From: Steroidobacteraceae bacterium
Lineage (GTDB): Bacteria > Pseudomonadota > Gammaproteobacteria > Steroidobacterales > Steroidobacteraceae
Reading direction: 5' to 3'
Assembly: GCA_036267535.1 (NCBI GenBank)
Contig: DATAVX010000105.1
Span: 237-64,236, forward strand
DNA: 64,000 nucleotides
In this document: piece by piece, positions 5,403 to 19,945 of the stretch
How the letters are laid out: each line of letters begins with the position of its first letter
How positions within the stretch are numbered: the stretch's first letter is position 1
Position numbers and translations under genes: made by a program
The notes under the pieces: generated by a model
Database searches by the model: none
Told to the model about the DNA's origin: nothing
Seen by the model: only the letters and a program-made list of their open reading frames with translations

Positions 5403-6368
5403 ATGAGGGCCTCGAAAAAGATGTTCACATTGTCGCGAAGGGATTTTTTGGCAGCAACAACGGCACTCCTGGCGGCCCGAGCCAGCGTTGCTTCAAACGC
5501 CCACCCCTTTTTCCAACGCACCGGTCTGCCCATAGGACTGCAGCTTTATACCGTCGGCGATGATCTGAATCGAGATTTTGACGGGACCTTGGCAGCGGTT
5601 GCAAAAATCGGCTATCGCACAGTCGAATTGGCCGGCCTGGCGAACCGCACCGTGGCCGATTGGCGTCAGGCGCTCGATCGCACGCAGCTGAAATGTCCTT
5701 CGATCCATGTTCCTCCCCACGCGAAGTCGGGCGCCAGCTTGGATGATCTTGGAGCACTGGCGGAGACGGCGCATGCCCTGGGTATCGGCACGATTATTTG
5801 CCCGATGTTCAACATGCCCGAGCGCTTTACTGTGCAGCCGTTGCCCGGCGAAGACAGCGGCAGAACGTTGGCTCGGCTCGTCGCTTCCATGACGCTGGAT
5901 GATTGGAAGTCGAACGCGGAGTATCTCAACGCCAAGGGCAAAGCGCTGCAGCAGTATGGACTTCGCTTCGGCTATCACAATCACAACGTCGAACTCGCAC
6001 CGATCGGCAACAGCAACGGACTGGCTGAATTGATACGCGGCACCGATCCTGCGCTCGTGACGTTCGAGATGGATGCAGGCTGGGTGGTCGCGGCGGGAGC
6101 GGACCCGCTGGCGCTGTTGGCCGCGCATCCGCGCCGCTTTAGCGCAATGCACGTAAAGGACGTCAAGGCCGGCACGCGTCCCAATTTCAGCCTGCGGCAA
6201 GATCCCTGTGAAGTTGGACAGGGCATCATCGATTGGAAGACGCTGTTGGCGAGGGCGCACGCGTCGAATGTGCGTCAGTTCTATGTGGAGCAAGAGCCGC
6301 CCTTCAATAAGCCGCGGCTTGAATCCGCGGCCATCAGTTTCAACTTTCTCAACAGCTTGGTGGCTTGA
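5403..6368 (+). CDS. Tat-exported sugar phosphate isomerase/epimerase (xylose-isomerase-like TIM barrel)
   Basis: A twin-arginine signal (LSRRDFLAATTALLAARASVA) is followed by TIM-barrel family blocks (YRTVELAG, GYHNHNVEL, MDAGW, FYVEQE). Confidence 0.85.
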   Translation: MRASKKMFTLSRRDFLAATTALLAARASVASNAHPFFQRTGLPIGLQLYTVGDDLNRDFDGTLAAVAKIGYRTVELAGLANRTVADWRQALDRTQLKCPSIHVPPHAKSGASLDDLGALAETAHALGIGTIICPMFNMPERFTVQPLPGEDSGRTLARLVASMTLDDWKSNAEYLNAKGKALQQYGLRFGYHNHNVELAPIGNSNGLAELIRGTDPALVTFEMDAGWVVAAGADPLALLAAHPRRFSAMHVKDVKAGTRPNFSLRQDPCEVGQGIIDWKTLLARAHASNVRQFYVEQEPPFNKPRLESAAISFNFLNSLVA

Positions 6369-6373
6369 GCGCC

Positions 6374-7192
6374 ATGCCCAGCCGCAAAGTCGCCACGGGC
6401 ACCATTCGAGTCGGCGTCGGCGGCTGGACCTACGAGCCCTGGCGCGGCACTTTCTATCCCGCCGATTTGCCGCAAAAGCGCGAGCTCGAACACGCCAGCC
6501 GTCAATTCACTTCAATCGAGATCAATGGCACCTACTACGGCGCCCAAAAGCCCGCCAGTTACGAGAAATGGCACGACGAGACGCCGGATGATTTCGTTTT
6601 TTCGCTGAAGGCCCCGCGTTTCGCCGTGAATCGCACCGTCCTGGCCGAAGCCGGCAACAGCATCGCGCGGTTCTTCGCCAGCGGTCTTACGGAGCTCAAG
6701 GAAAAGCTTGGACCAATCAATTGGCAATTTCTGCCGGGCAAGAAATTCGACCCTGCCGACTTCGCAGCATTCCTCAAGCTTCTGCCCCAAGAGGCGGGAG
6801 GCCGCTCGCTGCGTCACGTCGTCGAGGTGCGGCACGAGAGCTTCGCCACGCCTGATTTCATCGCATTGGCGCGAGAACATGGAGTCGGCGTGGTAATCGC
6901 GGGCGACTCGGCGTATCCGCAGATTGCCGACTTCACCGCGCCGTTCGTCTACGCCCGGATAATGGGCACTAAAGCGGAGGATGCGTCTGGTTACTCCGAG
7001 ACCGCTCTCGATCTTTGGGCCGCCCGCGCACGCGCATGGGCCTCGGGCAGTGCCGCGGAAGGCCTCACCTACGTGCAGCCCGGAGCGAGCGATGCCGTGC
7101 CTCGCGATGTGTACCTCTACGTGATCAGCGGCCACAAGGTCCGCAATCCCGCCGCTGCGGCGGCGCTGCTCAAGCGCCTCGCCCAAGCCTGA
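6374..7192 (+). CDS. DUF72 (YecE/UPF0759) family protein
   Basis: GVGGWTYEPWRGTFYPADLPQKRELEHASRQFTSIEINGTYYG is the hallmark DUF72 N-terminus. The start is taken at ATG 6374; the ORF track starts at TTG 6365, which overlaps the previous stop. Confidence 0.85.
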   Translation: MPSRKVATGTIRVGVGGWTYEPWRGTFYPADLPQKRELEHASRQFTSIEINGTYYGAQKPASYEKWHDETPDDFVFSLKAPRFAVNRTVLAEAGNSIARFFASGLTELKEKLGPINWQFLPGKKFDPADFAAFLKLLPQEAGGRSLRHVVEVRHESFATPDFIALAREHGVGVVIAGDSAYPQIADFTAPFVYARIMGTKAEDASGYSETALDLWAARARAWASGSAAEGLTYVQPGASDAVPRDVYLYVISGHKVRNPAAAAALLKRLAQA

Positions 7193-7334
7193 GCTTGCTC
7201 GACGGTCAGGGATGAGTCTGCTGCAGCGTCTGCCGCAGAAACGGCTGCAATTCCCTATCTGCCTGGCCGTGGGCGAAATCGGTAAACAGGACCGGCCAGA
7301 GCATCAACTCAAGCGCCAATTTAATTGTTCATAG

Positions 7335-9620
7335 CTACTGCCTAATTGGAATGTCGACATAGCTGTCGCCGTACCATCGAACCTTAATGGGTATCTTGCC
7401 GTCCGCCACGGATTCTTCACTCACATCGCCGCCGGTGCCGTAGTTGATCTCTCGATCGGGGCGCTTGGCGACGCTCAGCACGATGGCGAGACGGCTACCC
7501 GGCTGCAGCTGCCGGCTCGTCATGCGCTCGCTCTTGAAGGAGAGCTTTTGCCGTTCTCCCGCCTTCAGTAGATGCCGATGAACCCGGTCCGGCGCATAGC
7601 TCGCGCGCATCTCGTAGGTCGGACTGAAGAGTCGAATGTAGTCGCCGCTCGGAAGTTGCTCGTACAACGTGATGTTCAGGTCCAGATCCATTTTATTGAC
7701 CGCGAAATCAAGGCGGCCGGAAAACAAGCCATTAATGATGATCGTCTTGGTGAGCGGCTCGCTTACGAAGATCGCGCCGTGGCGGGGGGCGAGGCTTTTG
7801 CTGATGTAATCCGTGGGCGGCGTCCAAGCCGCGTCCTTGCGCTCAACAAGGTTCACGACCTGTTGAACGGCGCCATCGCCCGGTTTCTTGTGCAGATTCA
7901 GCCGATGATTTCCAGCAATGACCGCGGCATCCAGGTAGTAGCGCTGTGAAGCATTCGCTGTTCCCTCCAGTGATCCGGCGTGGTGCCACTCGTTTGCGCC
8001 CATCACCTCGTAATTGACCGGGGCGGACAGCAGCGCCGGCAGCGCCGTGCCTTTGAGAACATGATCAAGCCACTCGAAGCGCAGCTCTCGCAAGTCGACG
8101 AGCGCCGCGGGATCCACTTGATACCCATGCAAATTGGCTGAGGGCCCAGCGCGCATCGCGTCGGCGTCATATGGACCGATGAGCAGAGTGTGATCCGCAT
8201 GCGGGTTGTACTGATGATGCTGCGTGAAATAATAAAGATCGCCCGGAGCGGCGGCGGCGTAGTAACCGCTCATCGTGAGCACCGGAATGTTGATGTGCGA
8301 AAACTGTCGACGGTATGGCACGAACTTCTGCCAGTAGCCGTCGTAGCTCGGATGATTGAGCCAACGAATGAAAATCGGGTTGTGTTTTCCGTACAGCCGG
8401 CCCATGTCTCGATAACGCCTGCCGCTGCGGTACCACTTCTCGTCGAGGGCGTGCCACTTTGCGGCGTCTTCCTTCTCATTCACATCCGCCGCGCCATCCT
8501 CGTTCATCCGCAAAGACCAGCCATACGCCGCGTTCTGAAAAATATTGCCGGCCATCGGGAAATTGATTCCGGGTGCGCTTGCTGCAAAAGTGGCTATGGC
8601 CTTGAGCGCCGGCGGCAAGCGCTTGGCGGCGGCCCATGGCGCAAAGCCGCTGTAGCCATCGCCGTACATTGCCACCCGGCCGTCGCTCCAGGATTGCTTC
8701 GCGATCCAATCAATCGCCAGGCGCGCATTGGCTCCGACCAGATCCAAAGGATCGATGCCGCCCGGAGGCTTCGGTTTCCCGACCGTGAAGGCGACCACGC
8801 CCGCATAGCCGCGCGCGGCGCATTCCTTGGCATAGTTCTGTGATTCATCAGCGGCGAATTCAAGAAGCGCCGGCATGGACTTCGCCCCGCCGTTTGGACG
8901 AACCACAACGATTGAGATATCGGTTCCACCAGAACCCTTGATATGGACGCCGCTGTCGCTGGTATAGCGCCGATGGTCATCCTCCGCATTCAAGAGCACT
9001 ACCAGCGAACCGAAAGTCCGATAAGCATCAAAGGACACATACTTCCAAATCAGGTCAATTGCTTCGGACTCATCGACACTGTCCTTGCCGCGATACTGAT
9101 CCAAGTCTCTTTGCAAGGCTTCGCGATATGTCGCGGGGGACGCGCCGAGCCAGTGCGCGACGGCGAAGGCGTCGCGGTCATCCAGGCGCCGTACGGTTTC
9201 CCGGTACGTGGCGGTAAATGACTCGGCGAAAGTGATACGGCGTTCAGTTTCCACGGCCTTGGCGTGGGCGTACATGTCGAATATCACGGCGCGCCCTATC
9301 GGATGCCCGAAATCCGATTTTCGCCGCCGCTCGCGCAGCGATGACCTGGAAATGTCGGCGGCGGCGAAGTCGCCGACGGCCATTTGCAGCGCGGACAGAT
9401 TTGCCAGATATCGCTCTGGATCCGAGTCCTGATAGACGGGAATGAGCCGCGACGCCAAGTCGCTCATCGTCGCGGCGGTGGCGGCATCGAGCGGCGAAGC
9501 CGGCGCGCGGAAATCGAAATCCGGCGCGCTCCATCCTGGCGAGGCGAAGAAAAGCAGGGTCAGCACCGCAATTCGCATTCCGTGCAGGACGCGGGATCGA
9601 CGCAGTGGCAGCCGCTTCAT
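7335..9620 (-). CDS. CocE/NonD (peptidase S15 / X-Pro dipeptidyl-peptidase) fold protein with a signal peptide, an N-terminal helical extension, and an apparently absent catalytic triad
   Basis: Fold blocks are present: WIAKQSWSDGRVAMYGDGYSGFAPWAAA, LNHPSYDGYWQKF and LLIGPYD, plus a C-terminal jelly-roll region. The signal peptide is MRIAVLTLLFFASPGWSA. The start ATG overlaps the upstream ABC gene stop (ATGA). See the findings for the triad substitutions. Confidence 0.85.
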   Translation of the reverse strand: MKRLPLRRSRVLHGMRIAVLTLLFFASPGWSAPDFDFRAPASPLDAATAATMSDLASRLIPVYQDSDPERYLANLSALQMAVGDFAAADISRSSLRERRRKSDFGHPIGRAVIFDMYAHAKAVETERRITFAESFTATYRETVRRLDDRDAFAVAHWLGASPATYREALQRDLDQYRGKDSVDESEAIDLIWKYVSFDAYRTFGSLVVLLNAEDDHRRYTSDSGVHIKGSGGTDISIVVVRPNGGAKSMPALLEFAADESQNYAKECAARGYAGVVAFTVGKPKPPGGIDPLDLVGANARLAIDWIAKQSWSDGRVAMYGDGYSGFAPWAAAKRLPPALKAIATFAASAPGINFPMAGNIFQNAAYGWSLRMNEDGAADVNEKEDAAKWHALDEKWYRSGRRYRDMGRLYGKHNPIFIRWLNHPSYDGYWQKFVPYRRQFSHINIPVLTMSGYYAAAAPGDLYYFTQHHQYNPHADHTLLIGPYDADAMRAGPSANLHGYQVDPAALVDLRELRFEWLDHVLKGTALPALLSAPVNYEVMGANEWHHAGSLEGTANASQRYYLDAAVIAGNHRLNLHKKPGDGAVQQVVNLVERKDAAWTPPTDYISKSLAPRHGAIFVSEPLTKTIIINGLFSGRLDFAVNKMDLDLNITLYEQLPSGDYIRLFSPTYEMRASYAPDRVHRHLLKAGERQKLSFKSERMTSRQLQPGSRLAIVLSVAKRPDREINYGTGGDVSEESVADGKIPIKVRWYGDSYVDIPIRQ

Positions 9621-11443
9621 TGCGGATTTCCGCCGTCAATGCGCGATGCAGCCCGCTCGCCGTCGCTGCCTGCGGACTCGGTCTTCGATGAATCCTTGGG
9701 CAACTTGATAAGGTGCAGGGTTGCGGAAAACAGATCGTGCGCCTCGCCGGCACTGCCCACGTGGATAATGCCCGTGTGCTTGAGCTCCTTGGTAAACACA
9801 TCAATGACCAGCGCGAGCACATCGTCATCGAGCAATCCGAAGGTTCCGTCGATGAGCACCCAGGGCGGCATCTGTATCAGCATGCGCGCAAATACCAGGC
9901 ATAGCTGTTCGTCCTGGCTCAGCTCGCGGTCCCAGCGGCGAGTCTCATCGACCAGCGGCGCGAGGCGTTCGAGACCCAAGCGGAACAACGCGCGCGTAAA
10001 GGCGTCGGCGGTGAAATTCTCGGCCTTCAAAGGATACGCAAGCACCTCTCGCAGGCTGCCTCGCGGCAAGTACGGGGTGCCGCGCGGCAAATAGAATATC
10101 TGCTCGCCCTGGGGGCGCGTGACGCGGCCCGAACCCCAGGGCCACAAGCCTGCCAGGGCGCGGAAGAACTGGGTCTTTCCCGTTCCCGGCGCCCCCAGAA
10201 TGAGCACGCGCGAGCCGGCCTCGACGACCACTTTCAATTCCCGCAGCTTGTCGGCATGCGCAGAGGAAGTGCTCTCGAGTTTTTCCATCATGATTCTGCC
10301 CGGATCGCCTTCCGCGTACACGATGCGGCTTTCAAAACCGCGCGGCTCGTCGGTGGAAACGACGGCGTGGCGAAAAGTGGCCACGCGCAGCAATGTGGCG
10401 CGCCAATCGGCAATCACGCTGAAATTGTCGACGAACCAGCGCAGCGAGGATTGCGCCTGGGTGAACGCGGCAGCGGCCATCATTAATCCGCCGAAGGAAA
10501 CTTTGCCGGTGAAATACAGCGGGGCGGCCACCAGGATCGGTGCCACGATGGTCACCCAGCCGAATCCGGCAGTAACCCATTCAAGATTTGTGTGGCCCCA
10601 AACGATGCGCCGTGTTGCGCGCAAAACATCCACCAGACGGCGTTCGATGCGGCGCCTCTCGTCTGCCTCGCCTTGCGCAAGCGATATATCGTCGACATGC
10701 TCGTTGACGCGGACCAGCGAGAAGCGCAGGTCAGCCTCTCGCGCGTAGCGCTCGGCGTTGCGATTGATGAGCCCCCGCCCAACCCAGTAGCTCACCAGCG
10801 AGCCCGCACTTGCGTACAGAATGGCCGCCCACAGCATGAATCCCGGAATAGAGTAATCTCGGTCGCCGAAATGAAGGGTAAAGGTGCTGGACAGCCCCCA
10901 CAGGATGCCGGCAAACGTGCCGAACAGGATAGAGGCCTGAAAAAGGCCGATTCCCAGTCCGCCCGAGAGCTCGCACAATTTTCTTGCGTCCTCGTGGATG
11001 CGCTGGTCCGGATTGACCCCCATCGTGCCGCTGCTGGCGAGCCAGAATGCCCGCCGCGGCAACAGCCAGTCGCGCAGCAGACTTCGAACCAGCCCCTCTC
11101 GCAGTCTCACCTGCAGCATCTCCGCGAGCCAGCGCTGCGTCACGTTGAGAGCAAGAATGCAGCCGGCGATCACGAAGAAAACGCCGAGTTGGAACAGGAA
11201 GTCCCTCAGGTCGCGCCGTGAGAGCGCATCGTAGAATGGCTTGTTCCAGCTATTGAGCCGGATCTGTCCGTACGCCGTGGCCAAGATGACAAGCACGATC
11301 GCCGTCAGGAGAACCGCGATTTTCTTGCCCACGCCGGAGCTGGAAATCGCGCGGATCATCAATGTCAGCTGCCGCAGGAAGCCTAAGTGCACTACTTTGG
11401 CATCCGGTGCAGTGCGCGGTTTTGTCGTCGCGGGATCTGTCAC
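9617..11443 (-). CDS. SbmA/BacA-type (YddA-like) ABC half-transporter, fused TMD and NBD, with a degenerate NBD
   Basis: The TMD block NSWNKPFYDALSRRDLRDF...RWLAEMLQVRLREGL is typical of the SbmA_BacA/ABCD-like family. The NBD has Walker A GAPGTGKT and LAGLWPWGSG. The other ATPase motifs deviate (see findings). Confidence 0.85.
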   Translation of the reverse strand: MTDPATTKPRTAPDAKVVHLGFLRQLTLMIRAISSSGVGKKIAVLLTAIVLVILATAYGQIRLNSWNKPFYDALSRRDLRDFLFQLGVFFVIAGCILALNVTQRWLAEMLQVRLREGLVRSLLRDWLLPRRAFWLASSGTMGVNPDQRIHEDARKLCELSGGLGIGLFQASILFGTFAGILWGLSSTFTLHFGDRDYSIPGFMLWAAILYASAGSLVSYWVGRGLINRNAERYAREADLRFSLVRVNEHVDDISLAQGEADERRRIERRLVDVLRATRRIVWGHTNLEWVTAGFGWVTIVAPILVAAPLYFTGKVSFGGLMMAAAAFTQAQSSLRWFVDNFSVIADWRATLLRVATFRHAVVSTDEPRGFESRIVYAEGDPGRIMMEKLESTSSAHADKLRELKVVVEAGSRVLILGAPGTGKTQFFRALAGLWPWGSGRVTRPQGEQIFYLPRGTPYLPRGSLREVLAYPLKAENFTADAFTRALFRLGLERLAPLVDETRRWDRELSQDEQLCLVFARMLIQMPPWVLIDGTFGLLDDDVLALVIDVFTKELKHTGIIHVGSAGEAHDLFSATLHLIKLPKDSSKTESAGSDGERAASRIDGGNPQ

Positions 11444-11538
11444 GGGTTCAGCGCCCCTCCTGTCGGACTTTACACGTATGCACGCGATGGCGTCCCGACC
11501 ACGTGTTATTCCTACACCCTGTCCGTCTCACAATGACA

Positions 11539-13065
11539 TCAGTTTCGCAGGATTGCGCGGAGCATCGACATCCCGCGGCGGATCTCGGTCAAATCCACCG
11601 TGCCATAGCCGAGCACCAGTCCGGCCCTGGTTGGCGGTCCCAGGAAGTATCTGCTCAAGGTATGCATTTTGACGTGCTGCTGTGCCAACGCGGCGCTCAC
11701 TGCCTCGAGATCAACACGAGTGAGAGGTTCGGCCGCAACATGCATGCCGTAGAGGCAGGGGACGGGCACCAGCCATTCGCTCAAGGTGTCCCGCAATGAG
11801 CTCAACAGCAATTGTCGGCGCGCACGGTAGATCTCGCGCATTTTGGCGACATGGCGCGTCAGATGACCCTCGCTGATGAATGCGGCGACTGCGCTTTGAA
11901 TCGGCGTCGCGCAATGCCAATCGAAGCAATTTTTAGCGGCGGTCAAAGTATTGATAGCCCAGCTCGGGGCGACGATGAAACCGAGGCGCAACGCCGGCAG
12001 CATGCATTTTGAGAATGTGCCGACATAGAAGACCACGTCCATCGCACGCACCGCACGCAGCGCCGCGAGCGGGCTGCCCTCGTACCGAAACTCCCCGTCG
12101 TAGTCATCCTCGATGATCACCGCGCCGTGTTCGCGAGCAAATTCGAGCAGCGCCTCGCGCCGGCGCATCGACATGGTGATGCCCAGAGGGAATTGGTGCG
12201 ACGGAGTCACGCAGATGATGCGTACGCCGGGCGGCAGCCGTTCGACCATCAGACCTTCTGCATCGACGCCGATGGGAACCAGCCGGGCGCCCGCAGCTGC
12301 AAATGCCACGCGCATCGGCGGATAGCCCGGATCCTCCAGCGCAACGATGGTTTCGTCGGGTGTGACCAGCGCTCGGGCAAGCAGATCGAATGCCTGCTGC
12401 GCTCCGGAGGTCACGAGTATTTCCTCGGCCTCGCAAGCCACGGCACGCGTGATGGCAATGTGCCTGACGATCGCCTTGCGAAGATAGAAGTTGCCCTGAT
12501 TGCCCTGCGGGCTTTTGTAGCTCGCCGGTTTCCTTTCCAGGCCTCGCAGTTGCTTGGCGCTAACGCGCCGAAATACGTCCAGCGGAAAAAGCCTGGAGTC
12601 GACCATCGCAGGACGAAAATCGATCAGCGCGCCTTTGCGCGTGAGTGGCTCGGCTTCGGGCGGGTCGCGCCAGAAACTCATTGCCGCCGTAACGTCGGGA
12701 CGCAGCCAAAATCCGTTTATCCGATGCCGCAATGGCTGTTCCGCCGAAGGCCGCGTTGTTGCAGCCCGCGGCGGAATTATTTCCGCAACGTAGGTACCCG
12801 CACCGTGCCGGGTGACCGCGTGACCCTCCGTCACCAACCTCTCATAGACTTCTGCGGCGGTATTGCGCGAGACGCCGAAGAACTCAATCGATCTTCGCGT
12901 GGCGGGCAATTTTATGCCTGCCGCCAGGCGTCCATCGACGATGGCGGCTTTTAACTCACCATGCAGCGTCCGCGAGGATTCTCGTGAGCCGGCCGGCTCG
13001 AGATCGAGCTTAATCTCGAAAAAAGGCTCGAATGCCTGTCTACGCCGTGAGCGAGAGTGGCCCAA
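11539..13065 (-). CDS. MocR/PdxR-type regulator (GntR winged helix fused to a fold-type-I aminotransferase-like domain)
   Basis: The N-terminal wHTH reads LPATRRSIEFFGVSRNTAAEVYERLVTEGHAVTRHGAGTYV. The C-terminal PLP-fold carries the Lys motif GTFSKCMLPALRLGF. Confidence 0.9.
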   Translation of the reverse strand: MGHSRSRRRQAFEPFFEIKLDLEPAGSRESSRTLHGELKAAIVDGRLAAGIKLPATRRSIEFFGVSRNTAAEVYERLVTEGHAVTRHGAGTYVAEIIPPRAATTRPSAEQPLRHRINGFWLRPDVTAAMSFWRDPPEAEPLTRKGALIDFRPAMVDSRLFPLDVFRRVSAKQLRGLERKPASYKSPQGNQGNFYLRKAIVRHIAITRAVACEAEEILVTSGAQQAFDLLARALVTPDETIVALEDPGYPPMRVAFAAAGARLVPIGVDAEGLMVERLPPGVRIICVTPSHQFPLGITMSMRRREALLEFAREHGAVIIEDDYDGEFRYEGSPLAALRAVRAMDVVFYVGTFSKCMLPALRLGFIVAPSWAINTLTAAKNCFDWHCATPIQSAVAAFISEGHLTRHVAKMREIYRARRQLLLSSLRDTLSEWLVPVPCLYGMHVAAEPLTRVDLEAVSAALAQQHVKMHTLSRYFLGPPTRAGLVLGYGTVDLTEIRRGMSMLRAILRN

Positions 13066-13179
13066 TTATTTTTCCTCCAAGTGGCCCTTCAGGAGAGGGT
13101 TGCCACGGTCGCAAAATCTCACCGATGACAGCTTAGCGCCGGCGGGGGCGCGACGGCCCATTCTTGGCTAGAAATATTC

Positions 13180-13686
13180 ATGGAGACGGCGATGCAGTTC
13201 TCAAAATCGATCGCGATCGGCCTTCTGACCGCCGGCGCCGGGATGTGGATTGCACCCTCGAGCGCGTCGGGCGAGGCGGCTGACCCCTTCTCTGGGGGCT
13301 CCAAATCGATCGAACTGGATGGCATCGTCACAGTGCGAAAAGTCTGGGGTGGACGTGCCCAATTGGAAGAGATCGAGACCGACGGTCCGAACGGACATTG
13401 GGAAGGCTTGACATTGTTTCTCTACGATCCAGCCGCACATCAGTGGCGCCAGTCCTTTGTCAACAGCGAACAAGGCGTTCTCGCACCGCCGCTGGTCGGA
13501 TCCTTCAAGAATGGCCGCGGCGCATTGTTTGCTTCCGATACGTTCAAAGATCGGTCGATCCTGGTGCGCGGGGTGTGGTCGGACATCAAATCAGACTCGC
13601 ATCACTACGAGGAATCGTACTCGGGCGACGGCGGCAAGACCTGGATGCCGGCCTTTATTGCCGATCTCAGCCGAGAAAAGCCATGA
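13180..13686 (+). CDS. Secreted hypothetical protein (beta-rich, DUF1579-like pattern)
   Basis: The signal peptide is MQFSKSIAIGLLTAGAGMWIAPSSASG. The C-terminal ...EESYSGDGGKTWMPAF is typical of small secreted beta-barrel proteins. The gene is divergent from the MocR gene. The start could instead be ATG 13192. Confidence 0.6.
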   Translation: METAMQFSKSIAIGLLTAGAGMWIAPSSASGEAADPFSGGSKSIELDGIVTVRKVWGGRAQLEEIETDGPNGHWEGLTLFLYDPAAHQWRQSFVNSEQGVLAPPLVGSFKNGRGALFASDTFKDRSILVRGVWSDIKSDSHHYEESYSGDGGKTWMPAFIADLSREKP

Positions 13687-13714
13687 ACGGCGCGCAACAC
13701 CTTTGGCGCCGTTC
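13685..13714 (+). terminator. Candidate intrinsic terminator hairpin
   Basis: A 9-bp perfect stem GAACGGCGC / GCGCCGTTC with a 12-nt loop starts inside the stop codon of the 13180-13686 gene. It is followed by TTCT, which is a weak U-tract. Confidence 0.35.
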
Positions 13715-13863
13715 TTCTGGCGCGCTGCTCAGGGCGGTCTGCATTTTGTCCTACCGGGGCGTGTAGGACATTCCCGACGTCCGGTTAAGTGCTTCGGCCT
13801 TGCGAATTGCGCGCCCAGAGGAGGATAAGTCAGCTTCAACATCTACAACAACAAGGATTGCCG

Positions 13864-14502
13864 ATGTCGCGAGTACTGATTGCCGACGATCATGCCGTTG
13901 TGAGGGCGGGTTACAGGCAATTTCTCGAGGCCGAAGCCGGTATCACGGCAATCGGCGAGACCGCCAGCGGCAATGAGACGTTGGACCAGTTGCGTCAACA
14001 GCCGTGGGACCTGCTGCTGATGGACATCCACATGCCCGACCGCAGCGGCCTGGATATTCTGAAGCATGTCACCAGCGGTTTCCCCAAGGTGCGCGTGCTT
14101 ATCATGAGCGGACTACCCGAGGCCCAGTATGCTCGTAACGTGCTTCGCGCCGGCGCCAGCGGCTACCTTTCCAAGGGCGGCTCGCCGGAGGAACTATTGA
14201 AAGCGGTGCGCACCGTGCTGGTCGGACGCCGCTACGTCAGCGCTGCCCTCGCCGAAGCGATGGCCGCCGATCTCGAATCCGACCACGATCAAAATCAGCC
14301 TTTACACGAAAGACTATCCGTCCGAGAGTTCCAAATCTTCGGCAAATTGGCAGCCGGGTCCGGCGTCGGGGAAATAGCCGATGAATTGAGCCTGAGCGTC
14401 AAAACGGTCAGTACGTATCGATCGCGAATTCTGGAGAAGATGAATTTCAGCAGCAACGCGGACATGACGGCGTACGCACTGCGCAACGGCCTCATTTTAT
14501 AG
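13864..14502 (+). CDS. NarL/FixJ (LuxR-type) response regulator, with no adjacent histidine kinase
   Basis: The receiver domain reads VLIADDHAVVRAGY...DLLLMDIHMPDRSG...KVRVLIMSG. The LuxR HTH reads LSVREFQIFGKLAAGSGVGEIADELSLSVKTVSTYRSRILEKM. The start is taken at the internal ATG 13864. Confidence 0.9.
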   Translation: MSRVLIADDHAVVRAGYRQFLEAEAGITAIGETASGNETLDQLRQQPWDLLLMDIHMPDRSGLDILKHVTSGFPKVRVLIMSGLPEAQYARNVLRAGASGYLSKGGSPEELLKAVRTVLVGRRYVSAALAEAMAADLESDHDQNQPLHERLSVREFQIFGKLAAGSGVGEIADELSLSVKTVSTYRSRILEKMNFSSNADMTAYALRNGLIL

Positions 14503-14530: not shown

Positions 14531-15217
14531 CTACCGCCTCGGAACGATTGGCGCAACATTGGCATTTGATACCCAGCCGGAGCGGCCGGCCCGCGTCAGA
14601 ATGAGCGTGTATCCCTCGTGCTGGGCGGCGAGCTTGACGGTTTCGCCTTCCGCCAGAGTAAATAAGGCATCCCCCATCGGCACCGGAGAGACCCGGACCG
14701 GGGTTGCCGCCACAATCACAACTCCTGAATGCAACCTTGGCCACAGCGCAATGCCATTGCAGACGGTCAGACTCACCATGCACAATCCCAATAGGACACC
14801 GGCATGGCGCAAGCGCCGATACCGCGCCGTAGATCGTCCCAACAGCATGCATGCGCCCGCCATCGTCAAACCCACAATGCCGAGCCACGATAGAACGGAG
14901 GGACTGGCGATTCCGGCAATGCGATCGAAGGTGCTGCGCGTTGCGGGAGGCAAATGCGCGGAAGCACGCACAAACTGCAAGTTGGCCGCCACATCCGGAT
15001 CATCCGGCACGAGCAATCCCGCGCGCTCGTAATTGAGCACCGCCATGCCTGGTTTGCCGGCGCGCGCATAGGAATTCGCGAGATTGTAGAGGTCCGCGGC
15101 GGAATAGCCGGCCGGCGCCTGCGGCGGAGCCGCACGCGCCTGAAGGGGGCCCAGCAGCAAGCCAGCGCCGGGCAGCAAGCAAGCAAACAGACACAAGGCG
15201 CGTGCCCATGCGCTCAT
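14531..15217 (-). CDS. BatE-like TPR plus SH3 domain membrane protein (last gene of the Bat-type operon)
   Basis: After a signal peptide come a TPR unit (AADLYNLANSYARAGKPGMAVLNYERA), TM helices, and a C-terminal SH3-like region (VRVSPVPMGDALFTLAEGETVKL...GWVSNANV). The start ATG overlaps the batD stop (ATGA). Confidence 0.7.
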   Translation of the reverse strand: MSAWARALCLFACLLPGAGLLLGPLQARAAPPQAPAGYSAADLYNLANSYARAGKPGMAVLNYERAGLLVPDDPDVAANLQFVRASAHLPPATRSTFDRIAGIASPSVLSWLGIVGLTMAGACMLLGRSTARYRRLRHAGVLLGLCMVSLTVCNGIALWPRLHSGVVIVAATPVRVSPVPMGDALFTLAEGETVKLAAQHEGYTLILTRAGRSGWVSNANVAPIVPRR

Positions 15218-17022
15218 GCAGACTTCTCGCTCGCCAATTGGCCGCGAACTACGTTGAGCCATCGAACAAAATCGGTGGTGTTCGGCGCGCGCCCGGAATA
15301 TTTCGATTCATCCGCGAGCGCAAACAGCCGGCGAAGGTCGTTGTCTGCTCCAATTCTGGAATCAAGCTCGGAAGTGGTGACGTCTTCGGGCATCAGCTGC
15401 CACCGTGCTGCAAGCAAACGCTGCAGGGCGCTGCGCGCCGAATCGAAGAATAGCGTCTCGTTGCCATGATGAGCGGCTGCTTCCAATTGCGCCATCACCC
15501 GTTTGGTCGAATCGCTCTTGCCATCCCAGCGAGGCCTCAGCCCGAGGCACGCTGCCGCAAATGCCAGCATTAGAAATGAAGGAAGTGCGAGAAACTTCGG
15601 CTGCAAGTACAGCGGCGTCAGAGTGGGCCTCGGTGCGTCGACGGCGGCATGATCGGCCCGCAAACCGGCTGCCGATTTCGGCGTGCCGCTTGCCGCGGCA
15701 TTCGCGGCCACCTGAGGCGCAGTCAGCACACTGTCGGCTAAAGCCGGCGATATGGTCACGCTGAGAGGCGCTCCGCGCGCCGTCTCATAACGCCGCGAAT
15801 TCGGATCGAAGTAGCTAAACGACAGGGCGGGCAGCGTTTGCACGCCAGGTTTCGAAGCGATGACCGGTTGCTCGAAGGTCTTCATTCCGCTAAATCCAAT
15901 CGGATCGCTGGTATTGAAGGACGACTTCGGCGGATAGGTCTTCCACCGATCGACGTGATCGAGCATTCCGCTATCGACGCGATCGAAGCTTCCAGACCCC
16001 GAAATGCGCATGCGCAGCGTCACTGGGTCGCCGACATCGGCCTTGGCGGGGAAAATATCGCTGACAATGTTGAATGTGCCGATGGCACCATGAAAATCGG
16101 CTGGCCGCCCTTGGACGGGCAAATCCAAGACCTTCAGCTCTTGCGGCGGACTTGTAACTTCAATGTCCTTCGGGACGGTCGTGCCGAACAGATTCTGCCA
16201 GAACGGATCCCCGAACCGATCCTCCAAGAGCGCATCCCGCTTGGACCGAGTTCTAATTTTGACGGTCAGCGGAGCAGCGGCGGACAGCGAGAATGTACCC
16301 GGCTTGATCACTGAAAGGAGGCTGCGCCAAGTAAACAAGACGAATGGCTCGCCGTTGATCAATTTTTCGCTGCGCTCCGGTTGATGCGAGAGATTGTTGA
16401 GCGTGAAATTATCTCCCGTAAGCTTGGGCAACCCATTCAACGAGGACACGAATCCGGAGCGCATTCCGACCTCGATTTCGGCCGGAACGCTCTCACCGAC
16501 ATAAATTTCGCGCTTCGGAATACTGAGGCGGACATAGGCGGAGCCATCGTCGGTCAAGTGCACGCCCTTGGGAAGCGAGCCTCCGGACAAAATAGGCGGC
16601 GCAAGCGGCGCCGCGGGCGCGCCGGCGCGGGGCACGTAGGCGCCACTCGGTGCTGCATTCACCTGCAACACGAGTGGTTGAGACTTCGGCGTTACCGCCG
16701 GAATCGTGAAAATCCCGGCGATCTGCGGCGTCACGCGCATGACGGTCGACGCTGAGGGCAGAGTCGTTCCGTTTATGATTTGAATCTCATGCGTGCGTGC
16801 GACAATCTCGAATTTCAGCCCGGCGACCACCGGCATGGTGATCGGGTTCGTGCCGTCTCCTAGATTTGTAATCGTGAACTGCGCGGATTCGCCCAAGCTA
16901 ATCTGGGCGGGCTGAATCGTCGCGTATACCAACGGATCATCGGCAAGCGCCGTCGCTGCGCCAAGAAGGCCCATCAGGACCGTGGCGAACAACCAGCGGC
17001 TAATGAGTTGTTTCCTGCTCAT
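15214..17022 (-). CDS. batD: BatD-family (oxygen-tolerance) protein
   Basis: A signal peptide is followed by repeated beta-sandwich-like modules (...ATIQPAQISLGESAQFTITN...), a late TM helix, and a C-terminal cytoplasmic tail. The position matches Bat operons. ATG 17022 overlaps the batB stop (TAATG). Confidence 0.8.
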   Translation of the reverse strand: MSRKQLISRWLFATVLMGLLGAATALADDPLVYATIQPAQISLGESAQFTITNLGDGTNPITMPVVAGLKFEIVARTHEIQIINGTTLPSASTVMRVTPQIAGIFTIPAVTPKSQPLVLQVNAAPSGAYVPRAGAPAAPLAPPILSGGSLPKGVHLTDDGSAYVRLSIPKREIYVGESVPAEIEVGMRSGFVSSLNGLPKLTGDNFTLNNLSHQPERSEKLINGEPFVLFTWRSLLSVIKPGTFSLSAAAPLTVKIRTRSKRDALLEDRFGDPFWQNLFGTTVPKDIEVTSPPQELKVLDLPVQGRPADFHGAIGTFNIVSDIFPAKADVGDPVTLRMRISGSGSFDRVDSGMLDHVDRWKTYPPKSSFNTSDPIGFSGMKTFEQPVIASKPGVQTLPALSFSYFDPNSRRYETARGAPLSVTISPALADSVLTAPQVAANAAASGTPKSAAGLRADHAAVDAPRPTLTPLYLQPKFLALPSFLMLAFAAACLGLRPRWDGKSDSTKRVMAQLEAAAHHGNETLFFDSARSALQRLLAARWQLMPEDVTTSELDSRIGADNDLRRLFALADESKYSGRAPNTTDFVRWLNVVRGQLASEKSA

Positions 17023-18950
17023 TACCAATTCTTAAAAGGCTTGTCCGGCGGTTGCACGGCACCGCGCTGCGCCCACGGTATCGCCATATTTTTCTCGTCT
17101 CCTTTGACCGAATCCAATAGCTCCCGGGCTTCCTCGCGAGTCATTTCGCCCGGCGCTCGCTGGTTATCCGCCGTCCGCGGATCTCCGTCCGCGGATGGCG
17201 GCTGACCGGCGCTGCGTGGCGGCTGATCCGCATTTGGCTGTCCGGAATTTGGCTGCGGCGGCGCCTGCCCTGCCTGGCCCTGTTTAGGATCTTGCTTTTG
17301 GTCCTGCTTCGGGTCGTTGTTTTTTGCGTCGGGCCGCGAAGGAGGCGGTCCCTGAGCCTGTCCGGAACCTGGATGCGGCGGCTGCTCCTTGTTTTGTGCC
17401 GAGTTGTTCTGCTGATTCTGCTGATTCTGCTGATTCTGCTGATTCTGCTGGTTCTGCTGGTTCTGGTCCTTATTGTTCTTGTTTTGGTTCTGCTGATTGT
17501 TTTGCTTCTGCTGCTGCTTCAGCGCGTCGATTTTGCGCTTCACCAAATCCCGATTGAACTTGCTGTCCGCGTCGTCGGCGCGCAGCTGCAGCGCCGTCTC
17601 ATACGCCTTCACGGCATCGTTCCACTTCTGCAACGTCTCTTGCGGCGAACTCTGTTCGGTTTTCTGCCCCGATCGATAGAGGGTATTTCCAAGATTGTAG
17701 TAAGCATCCTCTTGGACGGCCAATTGCCGGGGATCGCCGGAGGGCACGTGGCCTATCGACTGCGCAAAGGAGCGCGCAGCCTGGGGAAATTGCGCCGCGC
17801 GGTAAGCGGCAGTTCCGGCGTTGTATTCGAGTATCGGTTGCTTCGCTTCAAGGATGGAATCGGCGTGCACAGGCTGTGAAGACACGGTCATAGCCATTGT
17901 TACCGTGGCCGACGCGGCACCGGCGGCGATGGCCCTGATAGGCGTCCTCAGGCGCCGCCGGCTTCCGATTAACAGGCTCGAGAGCAACATGGCGAGAGAT
18001 GCGGCCAATGGCCATTGAAACCGCTCGACATAAATTTTTTGCTGACGGGACGCCAGACCATGTTTTGCGATGGCTCCCAACACGGTCTGGAAAATCAGCT
18101 CAAGTCCCTCGCCCTGGTTTCCAAGCGGCACGTAGAATCCTCCGGTCGCACCGGCGATAGCCTTCAACGCGGTTTCATCCAGCCGCGATTTTACGAATGC
18201 TCCGCTATCGTCCTTCACAAATCCGCCGCCTTGCCCCGCCGCGATGGGAATCAAATCGCCCGCGGCCGTTCCCACGCCCACCGTAAAGATCTTGAGTCCG
18301 TCCGTCTTTGCCGCCGCCTGGGCCGTGTCAAAAGCGCTGCCCTCGAGGTCTTCGCCATCCGTCACGAGAATCAATATTTTATCGCTGTTTGGGCGGCGGC
18401 GCAGCGCGGCTTGAGCCGCTTGGATGGCAGTTGAGATATCGGTGCCCCCGCGCGGGACTATGCTCGTATCGAGGGCGCTCAAGGACTCGTGAAAGGCCCC
18501 ATAATCGAGCGTCACGGGGCAAGCCAAAAACGCGGCACCGGCGAATGCCACGATGCCCACCGCATCGCCGTCCAGTTTCTTCGCGAAGTCATCGACGGCA
18601 AGCTTGGCGCGCGTCAAACGATTGGGCCTGACATCAGGCGTCAACATGCTGCGAGAGGTGTCGATGGCGAATATGACTTCAATGCCGCGACGGCTGACTT
18701 GTTCCCAATGAAATCCCAGCTGCGGTTGAGCAAGCGCCGCGAATAGACAGACCAGGGCACCCAGAAACAGGCCGCGCTGCGCTCGGCGCCGGCCATGCGA
18801 AATTGAACGCGTCAGCTGATGCCGCAAATGTGCGGACACGAAGCGCGCGAGCGCCGTGTGTTGACGCGCATCGTACAGCCGCCAGAGCCAGATGAGCGCC
18901 GCGCCGGCCGCCAATCCCGCCGGCAGCCATGCTGGATTGCCGAATCTCAC
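17022..18950 (-). CDS. batB: BatB/BatC-like fusion: VWA domain, TPR repeats, and a long Q/N- and P-rich tail
   Basis: The GTG start at 18950 has GGAGG upstream and overlaps the batA stop (GTGA). The N-terminus has TM helices. The VWA MIDAS motif is IFAIDTSRSM. A TPR unit reads YYNLGNTLYRSGQ. The low-complexity tail reads QQNQNKNNKDQNQQNQQNQQNQQ... The 821-aa ORF in the track is an upstream extension that overlaps batA. Confidence 0.8.
   Translation of the reverse strand: MRFGNPAWLPAGLAAGAALIWLWRLYDARQHTALARFVSAHLRHQLTRSISHGRRRAQRGLFLGALVCLFAALAQPQLGFHWEQVSRRGIEVIFAIDTSRSMLTPDVRPNRLTRAKLAVDDFAKKLDGDAVGIVAFAGAAFLACPVTLDYGAFHESLSALDTSIVPRGGTDISTAIQAAQAALRRRPNSDKILILVTDGEDLEGSAFDTAQAAAKTDGLKIFTVGVGTAAGDLIPIAAGQGGGFVKDDSGAFVKSRLDETALKAIAGATGGFYVPLGNQGEGLELIFQTVLGAIAKHGLASRQQKIYVERFQWPLAASLAMLLSSLLIGSRRRLRTPIRAIAAGAASATVTMAMTVSSQPVHADSILEAKQPILEYNAGTAAYRAAQFPQAARSFAQSIGHVPSGDPRQLAVQEDAYYNLGNTLYRSGQKTEQSSPQETLQKWNDAVKAYETALQLRADDADSKFNRDLVKRKIDALKQQQKQNNQQNQNKNNKDQNQQNQQNQQNQQNQQNQQNNSAQNKEQPPHPGSGQAQGPPPSRPDAKNNDPKQDQKQDPKQGQAGQAPPQPNSGQPNADQPPRSAGQPPSADGDPRTADNQRAPGEMTREEARELLDSVKGDEKNMAIPWAQRGAVQPPDKPFKNW
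17407..17469. repeat. Seven-unit 9-bp tandem repeat (TTCTGCTGA/G) inside batB, encoding (QNQ)n
   Basis: Read directly: TTCTGCTGA x4, TTCTGCTGG x2, then a degenerate TTCTGGTCC. On the coding strand this gives QNQQNQQNQQNQQNQ. Confidence 0.9.
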
Positions 18951-19945
18951 GGCAGCCTCCGTAGGCGGGTCTGCTGCAAGAGCAGGCTGAGCCCAAGAAT
19001 TCCGAGCGCAGGAATGAGCGCCCAAGGATACAGCTCGTCGGTATGTTCGAATTTCTGTACTGTCCGGGCGTTTTTCTCCAAGCGATTGATCTGTTCGTAG
19101 ATCTTTTGCAACGAATCGGTATCCGTTGCGCGATAAAACTTGCCGCCCGTTGCGTCTGCCACTGCTTGCAGCGTCTTTTCGTCTACGTCCACCTTGGCCA
19201 TCACCAAGCGCGCGTTTCCCAACGCATCCCTGACTGGAATCGGCGCGTCGCCGCGCACCCCTACGCCGATGGTATAGATCTTGACACCCATGGCCCGGGC
19301 GGCTTCCGCGGCGGCGATCGGCGAAATCTTGCCTGTGTTGTTCACCCCGTCGGTGAGCAATATGATCACTTTCGACTTCGCCTGCGTCAGACGCAGCCGA
19401 TTGACGCCGGCCGCAATGGCCGAGCCAATCGCAGTGCCATCGTCCACGCCGCCCACGGCGACCCGGTCCAGGTTTTGCTGCAGCCAATCGTGGTCGAGCG
19501 TGAGCGGGCTGACCAGATACGGAGCGCCTGCGAAGGCGATGATGCCGATGCGATCGTCGGGCCGTTCATCGATGAATCTGGAGACCACGGACTTGACCAC
19601 CTCGATGCGGTTCACGCGCTGGTGCTCCATCTGAAAGTCCAATGCCTGCATGGACCCGGAGACATCCAGACCCAGCACGATATCGATGCCATTGGCAGTC
19701 ACTTCGGTGCGGCCATGGGCGCGCTGCGGTCTCGCCAGACCCACGATCATCAGGGCGCCTGCCAGAACCGGCAACATCCACATCAACCAGCCAATCTTGC
19801 TGCGTCCGCGCCGAGCGACCTCGCGCGCCAGGCTGACATCGGAGAATTCAATGGCGGCAACGGGGCCCCTCCGCCCACGCCATAACATGACGAGGGGCAG
19901 CAGAGCCAAAAGCCAGAACCACTCAGGTTGCAGGAACCGGGTCAT
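18947..19945 (-). CDS. batA: BatA-like VWA-domain membrane protein
   Basis: N-terminal TM helices (WFWLLALLPLVMLW) precede the VWA MIDAS motif VLGLDVSGSM. A C-terminal TM helix follows. Confidence 0.85.
   Translation of the reverse strand: MTRFLQPEWFWLLALLPLVMLWRGRRGPVAAIEFSDVSLAREVARRGRSKIGWLMWMLPVLAGALMIVGLARPQRAHGRTEVTANGIDIVLGLDVSGSMQALDFQMEHQRVNRIEVVKSVVSRFIDERPDDRIGIIAFAGAPYLVSPLTLDHDWLQQNLDRVAVGGVDDGTAIGSAIAAGVNRLRLTQAKSKVIILLTDGVNNTGKISPIAAAEAARAMGVKIYTIGVGVRGDAPIPVRDALGNARLVMAKVDVDEKTLQAVADATGGKFYRATDTDSLQKIYEQINRLEKNARTVQKFEHTDELYPWALIPALGILGLSLLLQQTRLRRLP

Follow-up and report, generated by a model that had tools for sequence, protein, structure and literature searches.

Proteins of the CocE/NonD superfamily (MEROPS family S15, with the alpha-amino acid ester hydrolases and PepX) combine an alpha/beta-hydrolase core, an insertion and a beta-sandwich, and alpha/beta-hydrolases are known to have given rise to pseudoenzymes. 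Transporters of the SbmA/Rv1819c/YddA type matter for the uptake of vitamin B12, antimicrobial peptides and antibiotics, and how they capture their substrates is poorly understood. We analysed a stretch of 64,000 nt from a Steroidobacteraceae bacterium (assembly GCA_036267535.1, contig DATAVX010000105.1), referred to as a whole as the window, in which an open reading frame (ORF) at 7335-9620 on the minus strand encodes a 761-aa protein whose residue numbers are used throughout. This protein has the same core, insertion and beta-sandwich and has kept the G-x-x-Y-x-G elbow and the GPY(D) loop, but, unlike CocE, it has no catalytic Ser, Asp or His and no oxyanion Tyr, it carries in addition a signal peptide and a helical domain of about 190 aa, and it is always accompanied by a partner encoded as an ATP-binding cassette (ABC) protein. 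We lean towards the view that this exported pseudoenzyme, here called the dead hydrolase, serves an Rv1819c/YddA/SbmA-like importer of hydrophilic solutes as its periplasmic partner and probably as its ligand receptor.

Profile searches with the two families that an earlier, sequence-only reading of this DNA had named as a check gave clear matches, Peptidase_S15 (PF02129) covering residues 232-483 (E 3.4e-26, 93 bits, cut-off 23) and PepX_C (PF08530) residues 533-729 (E 7.6e-7, 29.7 bits, cut-off 22.5), and the NCBIfam model TIGR00976 (CocE_NonD) scored 149.3 bits (cut-off 66.3). An AlphaFold2 (AF2) model computed from an alignment of 149 sequences with 35-80% identity to the query reached a predicted local distance difference test (pLDDT) value of 91.5 and a predicted template modelling (pTM) score of 0.88; an earlier model from 58 sequences with 66-83% identity had been discarded (pLDDT 55.8, residues 337-510 disordered). 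The top 15 Foldseek matches of the retained model were all CocE, with E values of about 1e-36 and TM scores of 0.74-0.77 normalised to the target, and were followed by an archaeal S15 aminopeptidase, alpha-amino acid ester hydrolases, SACOL2612 and PepX.

The model shows a signal-like helix, an all-helical domain (residues ~48-218), the alpha/beta-hydrolase core with its helical insertion, and the C-terminal beta-sandwich. On the minus strand these parts correspond to a predicted signal peptide (residues 1-32, MKRLPLRRSRVLHGMRIAVLTLLFFASPGWSA / PDF, 9525-9620), the helical N-terminal domain (residues ~33-218, 8967-9524), the Peptidase_S15 domain with the insertion (residues ~219-530, 8031-8966) and the PepX_C beta-sandwich (residues ~531-761, 7338-8030, AF2 strands 535-760), and the stop codon lies at 7335-7337. 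The signal peptide, already proposed in the sequence-only reading, was recognised by eye from a basic n-region, a hydrophobic core and the WSA/P site, and also from the AF2 helix at residues 6-25; a hydrophobic N-terminus is found in every dead-hydrolase orthologue, and in the natural fusions described below it survives as a segment of the membrane-spanning type. A Tat (twin-arginine translocation) signal suggested by the RR at residues 7-8 was rejected, as this RR is not conserved among orthologues. The N-terminal extension of about 190 aa, absent from CocE, is likewise real (AF2 helices 48-218), and it has no Pfam family at E<=1, while a profile search against PDB sequences gave matches only from residue ~219 onward and none over this domain. 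Because the same helical domain is also found in triad-bearing relatives, it is a trait of the family and no part of the inactivation.

Pairwise alignment to CocE PDB chains with HMMER reproduced exactly the correspondences that had been drawn by eye, so that Gly322 occupies the position of the nucleophile Ser117 of CocE (MYGDGYSGF against MFGVSYLGV), Ala455 that of Asp259 (MSGYYA against TAGWYD) and Ala486 that of His287 (GPYDADAM against GPWSHSNL). Alignments to CocE and to the family place these changes at 8655-8657 (GDGYSG where GGSYxG is expected), 8256-8258 and 8163-8165 (GPYDA for GPYDH), respectively, all on the minus strand; for the Gly322 codon the sequence-only reading had given the right coordinates and the wrong strand, GGC being the minus-strand codon and GCC the plus-strand letters. 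A fourth catalytic element, the oxyanion-hole Tyr, is lost as well. It stands in an 'FTIY' motif in the family alignment, where 42 of the 43 triad-bearing proteins have it, as do 11 of the 39 proteins without the catalytic His (His-less proteins), and it is replaced by Asp258 in the window protein (8847-8849, minus strand). The 'FTIY' Tyr was equated with Tyr44 of CocE by its strand position after beta3, where the MAFFT alignment to CocE is gapped. Ser324 of 'YSG', put forward earlier as a residue that might rebuild a triad, was rejected as an alternative nucleophile: its column varies among L, S, N and E in triad-bearing relatives (GGSYLGF or GGSYSGF), which indicates ancestral variation and not compensation. 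Similarly, H423, H468 and H477 are conserved alike in triad-bearing and His-less members, so that none of them is a clade-specific replacement for the lost His, and by alignment no alternative Ser-Asp-His triad was found. Despite the lost catalytic side chains, G320, Y323, W329 and W368, which belong to the elbow scaffold and the pocket aromatics, are invariant, and substitutions also affect further positions that hardly vary in the triad-bearing family (G321, Q328, R388, D410, Q724 and, in the N-terminal domain, F76-R77). The 761-aa protein is a member of the CocE/NonD superfamily by homology and fold in which the defining catalytic features have failed, and filing it as a hydrolase is inappropriate.

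Loss of all catalytic residues could be expected of a decaying or strain-specifically inactivated hydrolase gene which has an ABC gene as its neighbour by chance. This explanation is refuted by several observations. The frame is intact over 761 codons, as had been claimed, with a GC content of 0.63/0.46/0.71 at the three codon positions, and the ratio of nonsynonymous to synonymous substitution rates (dN/dS), which the sequence-only reading had wanted determined, is 0.10-0.15 at the codon level against three orthologues with 68-80% identity, overall and also separately in the N-terminal, hydrolase and C-terminal domains. Purifying selection thus acts along the whole gene. More than 1800 homologues of the protein are present in the databases, and among the 120 closest (at least 67% identity, from Steroidobacteraceae metagenome bins) the nucleophile column reads A81/G39/D1, the Asp column A114/S4/T2/C1 and the His column E100/D14/A6/Q1; close orthologues with the canonical residues, which would have pointed to decay in a single strain, were sought in this set and none has the Ser or the His. 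The His is missing from a whole clade of 39 sampled proteins, which makes its loss clade-wide and not strain-specific, and the dead hydrolase and its ABC neighbour stay together in Gamma- and Betaproteobacteria at identities as low as 43%, with genes that overlap or are fused. The earlier suggestion of a retained non-catalytic derivative is therefore supported by both purifying selection and clade-wide loss.

As to its origin, an exhaustive search among representatives at 50% identity returned 382 relatives at E<=1e-30, many of them full-length (~750 aa) and collinear with the window protein, N-terminal helical domain included. In alignment with CocE, the distant ones (up to ~44% identity) keep GGSYxGF, GY(Y/F)D and GPYDH and the nearer ones do not. 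The triad-bearing relatives come from Xanthomonadales, Bacteroidota, Acidobacteriota and Gemmatimonadota and also have signal peptides. In a neighbour-joining tree rooted with CocE, which carries no support values, the 39 His-less proteins (43-80% identity, from Gamma- and Betaproteobacteria) form one clade with no His-bearing member, nested inside the exported ~750-aa hydrolase family, and basal members retain a Ser or a Thr (SDD, SAD, SGD and TAD at the three positions). The simplest history suggested by these sequences is a single inactivation, in which the His would have been lost first, usually to Asp or Glu, and the Asp, the Ser and the oxyanion Tyr afterwards on different branches; the order of the losses is provisional. 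Intermediates with Ser or Thr and without His that are already linked to an ABC gene were observed in P0123 (L084, 7001-9271) and at L011, L017, L019, L047 and L014.

The basal members bear on the question of whether the protein could still be an enzyme, acting by a non-canonical mechanism or at another site, for instance through a Ser-carboxylate dyad in these members or by deacylating a glucan before import. Their Ser or Thr is combined with Asp at the His position (SDD, SAD, SGD, TAD), the His position is mostly acidic (D or E) throughout the clade, and beta-1,2-glucans can bear ester-linked succinyl groups, according to a reference cited in PMC11842490. The window protein, with Gly/Ala/Ala at the triad positions and Asp for the oxyanion Tyr, has no nucleophile, base or oxyanion residue left, the nucleophile column varies freely among G, A, R and D in most of the clade, and the replacement of G321, Q328, R388, D410 and Q724 extends the change to further residues of the triad-bearing family. 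Residual catalysis is thus conceivable for the basal Ser-keeping members and hard to sustain for the window protein, and we regard an enzymatic role as quite improbable.

The gene directly upstream of the dead hydrolase (9617-11443, minus strand) encodes an ABC half-transporter of 608 aa in which a transmembrane domain of the SbmA_BacA / ABC_membrane_2 type (Pfam) is fused to a nucleotide-binding domain (NBD). Its closest solved structure is Rv1819c of Mycobacterium tuberculosis (PDB 6tqe, E 2.5e-53), and it has 26% identity to YddA of E. coli (E 1e-60). In the window its stop codon and the start codon of the dead hydrolase share 4 nt (ATGA). A scan with one genome per GTDB species yielded 80 loci, and such an ABC gene was found in the cluster at 37 of the 37 His-less loci with enough flanking DNA (36 times directly upstream on the same strand, the remaining cluster, L050, being rearranged with the ABC gene still present) and at none of the 37 His-bearing, intact-triad loci with comparable flanks (Fisher p = 1e-21, uncorrected for phylogeny). 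The pair is retained in Steroidobacteraceae, Nevskia, Methylibium, Variovorax and other Burkholderiales, down to 43% identity, and persists even at loci whose other neighbours have all changed. The 4-nt stop/start overlap (ATGA or GTGA) is present in 35 of 42 pairs, with three others overlapping by 8-11 nt. The genes that follow the pair in L019, L020 and L035 are unconserved and mostly on the opposite strand, which makes the dead hydrolase the last gene of the operon.

In one lineage the two genes have become a single in-frame gene encoding the ABC protein, a hydrophobic segment and the dead hydrolase, as in P0129 (1369 aa), L090 (795-4976, 89% identity to P0129) and L070 (4177-8187, 67% identity to both), the fusions spanning 1337-1393 codons; the long open frames at L012 and L042, regarded as artefacts of assembly or frame, are not included. 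In the fusions the former signal peptide persists as the hydrophobic segment between the cytoplasmic NBD and the hydrolase-fold domain, a topology that places the latter in the periplasm, tethered to the transporter. These fusions are classical 'Rosetta stone' evidence of a physical partnership, and the obligate operon coupling together with the natural fusion strongly suggests a binding or scaffold role for the dead hydrolase.

The ATPase motifs of the partner are themselves degenerate, and this holds for most of the clade. In the window ABC protein the Walker A motif is present (GAPGTGKT), but the canonical set of a Q-loop Gln, LSGGQ and a catalytic Glu after Walker B is not, the corresponding sequences being LPRGTPY, LSQDEQ and LIDG. 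The Q-loop Gln is replaced (LPRGTPY) in all ABC members of the clade, the residue after the Walker B Asp is Gly, Asp or Asn, with Glu only in the Methylibium/Variovorax branch, and Walker A drifts in several lineages. At the same positions E. coli YddA is canonical (SQ, LSSGEKQ, LDE). The PDB chain of Rv1819c has Gly at the position of the catalytic Glu, which we take to be the engineered substitution E576G, and for this reason YddA was used as the natural comparator.

What the transporter might carry is suggested by the gene order at about 20 basal or divergent loci of Steroidobacteraceae, Nevskia, Methylibium, Variovorax and Burkholderiaceae, where a divergent glycoside hydrolase (GH) gene of family GH3 is followed by genes for a PF10091 (GH144-like) protein, a GH15 protein, the ABC protein and the dead hydrolase, with the pair at the end (L084, 283-9271; L086, 96-9265; and L011, L014, L017, L019, L020, L022, L025, L028-L031, L033, L035, L038, L047 and L050). 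Start and stop codons overlap within the L084 cluster. The PF10091 protein matches the GH144 endo-beta-1,2-glucanase of Chitinophaga pinensis (5gzh) at 5e-137, and the GH15 protein matches glucoamylase catalytic domains at 4e-41. No signal-peptide-like N-terminus was found in the GH144, GH15 and GH3 proteins at any of these loci, even when read from the most upstream start. Enzymes without a signal, an ABC membrane protein and one exported protein together have the layout of an uptake pathway, and the cluster implies cytoplasmic breakdown of an imported substrate of the beta-1,2-glucan type. This type of cluster (GH3, GH144, GH15, ABC, dead hydrolase) was not found in the literature searched. 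The derived Steroidobacteraceae subclade that includes the window holds the pair only, and tblastn detected no GH144, GH15 or GH3 homologue in the 64-kb window.

Taken together, we favour the following scheme for the role of the pseudoenzyme as periplasmic partner. An exported S15-type hydrolase would have been inactivated once, His first, and its gene would then have become translationally coupled to that of an inner-membrane transporter, at whose periplasmic face the dead hydrolase would act as an extracytoplasmic subunit. A hydrophilic solute may be bound in the remodelled cleft of the former active site, or on the beta-sandwich, and would be handed to the transporter cavity for import, unless the subunit instead gates access to that cavity. 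The ancestral cargo was probably a beta-1,2-glucan or oligosaccharide destined for the cytoplasmic GH144, GH15 and GH3 enzymes of the same cluster. The data show the catalytic losses, the purifying selection, the single origin, the strict pairing, the fusions and the predicted compartments. For the unfused systems the physical contact is something we infer, as we do ligand binding, the direction of transport and the cargo. In line with an importing function, Rv1819c reportedly takes up hydrophilic compounds (Rempel et al., 2020). PMC3603451, whose title concerns a vitamin B12 transporter of M. tuberculosis, names Rv1819c 70 times.

The same coupling and fusions show association and not ligand binding, and the dead hydrolase may accordingly serve the transporter without catalysis, as a structural or regulatory subunit (a stabiliser, a periplasmic lid or plug, or an export partner) that binds no cargo. 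Of the residues conserved in the sampled His-less proteins, many are charged and lie in the N-terminal helical domain (D54, R58, R92, R98, R100, R177 and W157), away from the old active site, as would be expected of a new protein-protein interface, although the set compared consists mostly of Steroidobacteraceae-type sequences and the Arg/Asp-rich signal may partly reflect shared ancestry. The degenerate NBD, moreover, points to a transporter of an unusual kind, for which an accessory factor may be necessary. The invariant elbow scaffold and pocket aromatics (G320, Y323, W329 and W368), on the other hand, fit a preserved cleft, and the cytoplasmic GH genes of the ancestral cluster imply imported material that has to be captured. 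We consider a purely structural or regulatory subunit unlikely.

Several points weigh against a periplasmic receptor for an importer. The pairing has a single origin, so that the 37 to 0 table and its Fisher p overstate the independent support. The window lineage has no GH genes nearby, and the glucan role is not transferable there. Neither Rv1819c nor SbmA or BacA is known to require a partner in the periplasm. The transporter family also has exporters (ABCD1-3), so that transport may run in either direction. Finally, the motifs of the degenerate NBD indicate that the ABC partner may be no ATP-driven pump at all. SbmA and BacA are NBD-less, proton-driven members of this fold, as described in PMC8442886 and PMC13316013. 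If the partner is no classical ATP-driven pump, the part played by an additional subunit in the periplasm gains in interest. A bolder extension of the receptor reading, possible and on the whole doubtful, is that the dead hydrolase represents the first dedicated extracytoplasmic receptor for an exporter-fold (type IV) importer, and that two pseudoenzymes together would take up beta-1,2-glucans or other large hydrophilic solutes in a proton-driven or ATP-gated manner that dispenses with classical ATP hydrolysis.

The other genes around the pair were also inspected. A MocR/PdxR-like GntR-aminotransferase regulator (11539-13065, minus strand; Pfam; NCBIfam PdxR 372 bits, cut-off 320) is encoded on the same strand as the ABC gene, 95 nt upstream, and is linked to the pair only in L001-L004, L010 and L032; its membership in the unit is uncertain. 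In L001 a gene for a 379-aa PF00144 (beta-lactamase / serine hydrolase) protein (10283-11422) stands 3 nt downstream of a dead-hydrolase orthologue with 80% identity. The window is without this insertion, and a DUF72 gene is located 142 nt past the dead hydrolase. This DUF72 gene (6365-7192, plus strand) overlaps by 4 nt a gene (5403-6368, plus strand) for a xylose-isomerase-like TIM-barrel protein (AP_endonuc_2) with a twin-arginine-type N-terminus (SRRDFLAATTALLAA), and the two, convergent with the dead hydrolase, are syntenic in L001-L006, L010 and L032. Farther upstream, BatD-like and VWA/TPR genes of the Bat-operon type (15214-19487, minus strand) and a LuxR-type response regulator (13789-14502, plus strand) show synteny in L001-L003 and seem to have no connection with the dead hydrolase. 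An Rfam scan of 7000-13800 detected no riboswitch, such as a cobalamin riboswitch, that could name the cargo, and a scan for promoters and terminators returned 0 promoters and terminator-like sites no more numerous than in the shuffled background.

The partnership of an alpha/beta-hydrolase-fold pseudoenzyme with an SbmA/Rv1819c-like transporter, together with its ancestral link to beta-1,2-glucan, is previously undescribed. Reports on CocE/NonD pseudoenzymes, or on CocE/NonD proteins linked with GH144, SbmA or Rv1819c, were not found in a literature search of incomplete coverage, which is no proof of novelty. The record is an unusually clean one, with a triad-bearing ancestor family, a single origin, stepwise loss and an invariant genetic partner from then on. 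It suggests that transporters of the SbmA/Rv1819c/YddA type can use a periplasmic partner protein, and it points to an undescribed uptake route for beta-1,2-glucan in soil Proteobacteria that would feed cytoplasmic GH144, GH15 and GH3 enzymes. Throughout the clade the databases use the label 'CocE/NonD family hydrolase', which very probably misstates the function. One carrier, Variovorax sp. CCNWLW235 (L035), can be cultured, which opens the hypothesis to direct testing, and the intermediates that keep a Ser or Thr are useful for probing residual activity.

Among known proteins, the sequences point to the uncharacterised exported CocE/NonD family of ~750 aa as the direct ancestor group of the dead clade. 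Its members are collinear over the full length, have signal peptides and share 32-44% identity with the window protein (for example P0421 of Arenimonas, 44%); they keep GGSYxGF, YD and DH and the 'FTIY' Tyr, and none of them has such an ABC gene or the GH genes as neighbours. Classical solute-binding proteins (SBPs) are matched here in the export signal and the operon position but not in their two-lobed, hinged fold, that of the dead hydrolase being CocE-like, and no SBP family of Pfam matched the 761-aa protein. On the transporter side, Rv1819c and SbmA/BacA share the type of membrane domain with the ABC partner, whereas the window ABC protein is without the Q-loop Gln and the Walker B catalytic Glu.

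At the level of gene clusters, the known beta-1,2-glucan (SGL/SOGP) clusters combine, like the basal lineages described here, a GH144 homologue, a GH3 beta-glucosidase and a transporter, and employ a classical carbohydrate-binding subunit of an ABC importer, as reviewed in PMC11842490. The present system, by contrast, combines a transporter of exporter fold with a dead hydrolase as its periplasmic component and a GH144 enzyme located in the cytoplasm, and from the window these GH genes are missing. The PqqL-YddB-YddA system of E. coli and the Fus system of Pectobacterium, in which FusD is an inner-membrane transporter, likewise combine a YddA-type ABC protein and a periplasmic peptidase-fold protein in one operon (PMC6793856). 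They differ in having an active M16 metalloprotease and a TonB-dependent receptor in the operon, where the system described here has a dead S15 fold and ancestral GH neighbours, and no TonB-dependent receptor gene adjoins the pair in the window or in L001-L003, L084 and L086. PqqL-YddB-YddA and Fus are nevertheless the nearest precedent at the systems level for a transporter of this type encoded together with a periplasmic protein of peptidase fold.

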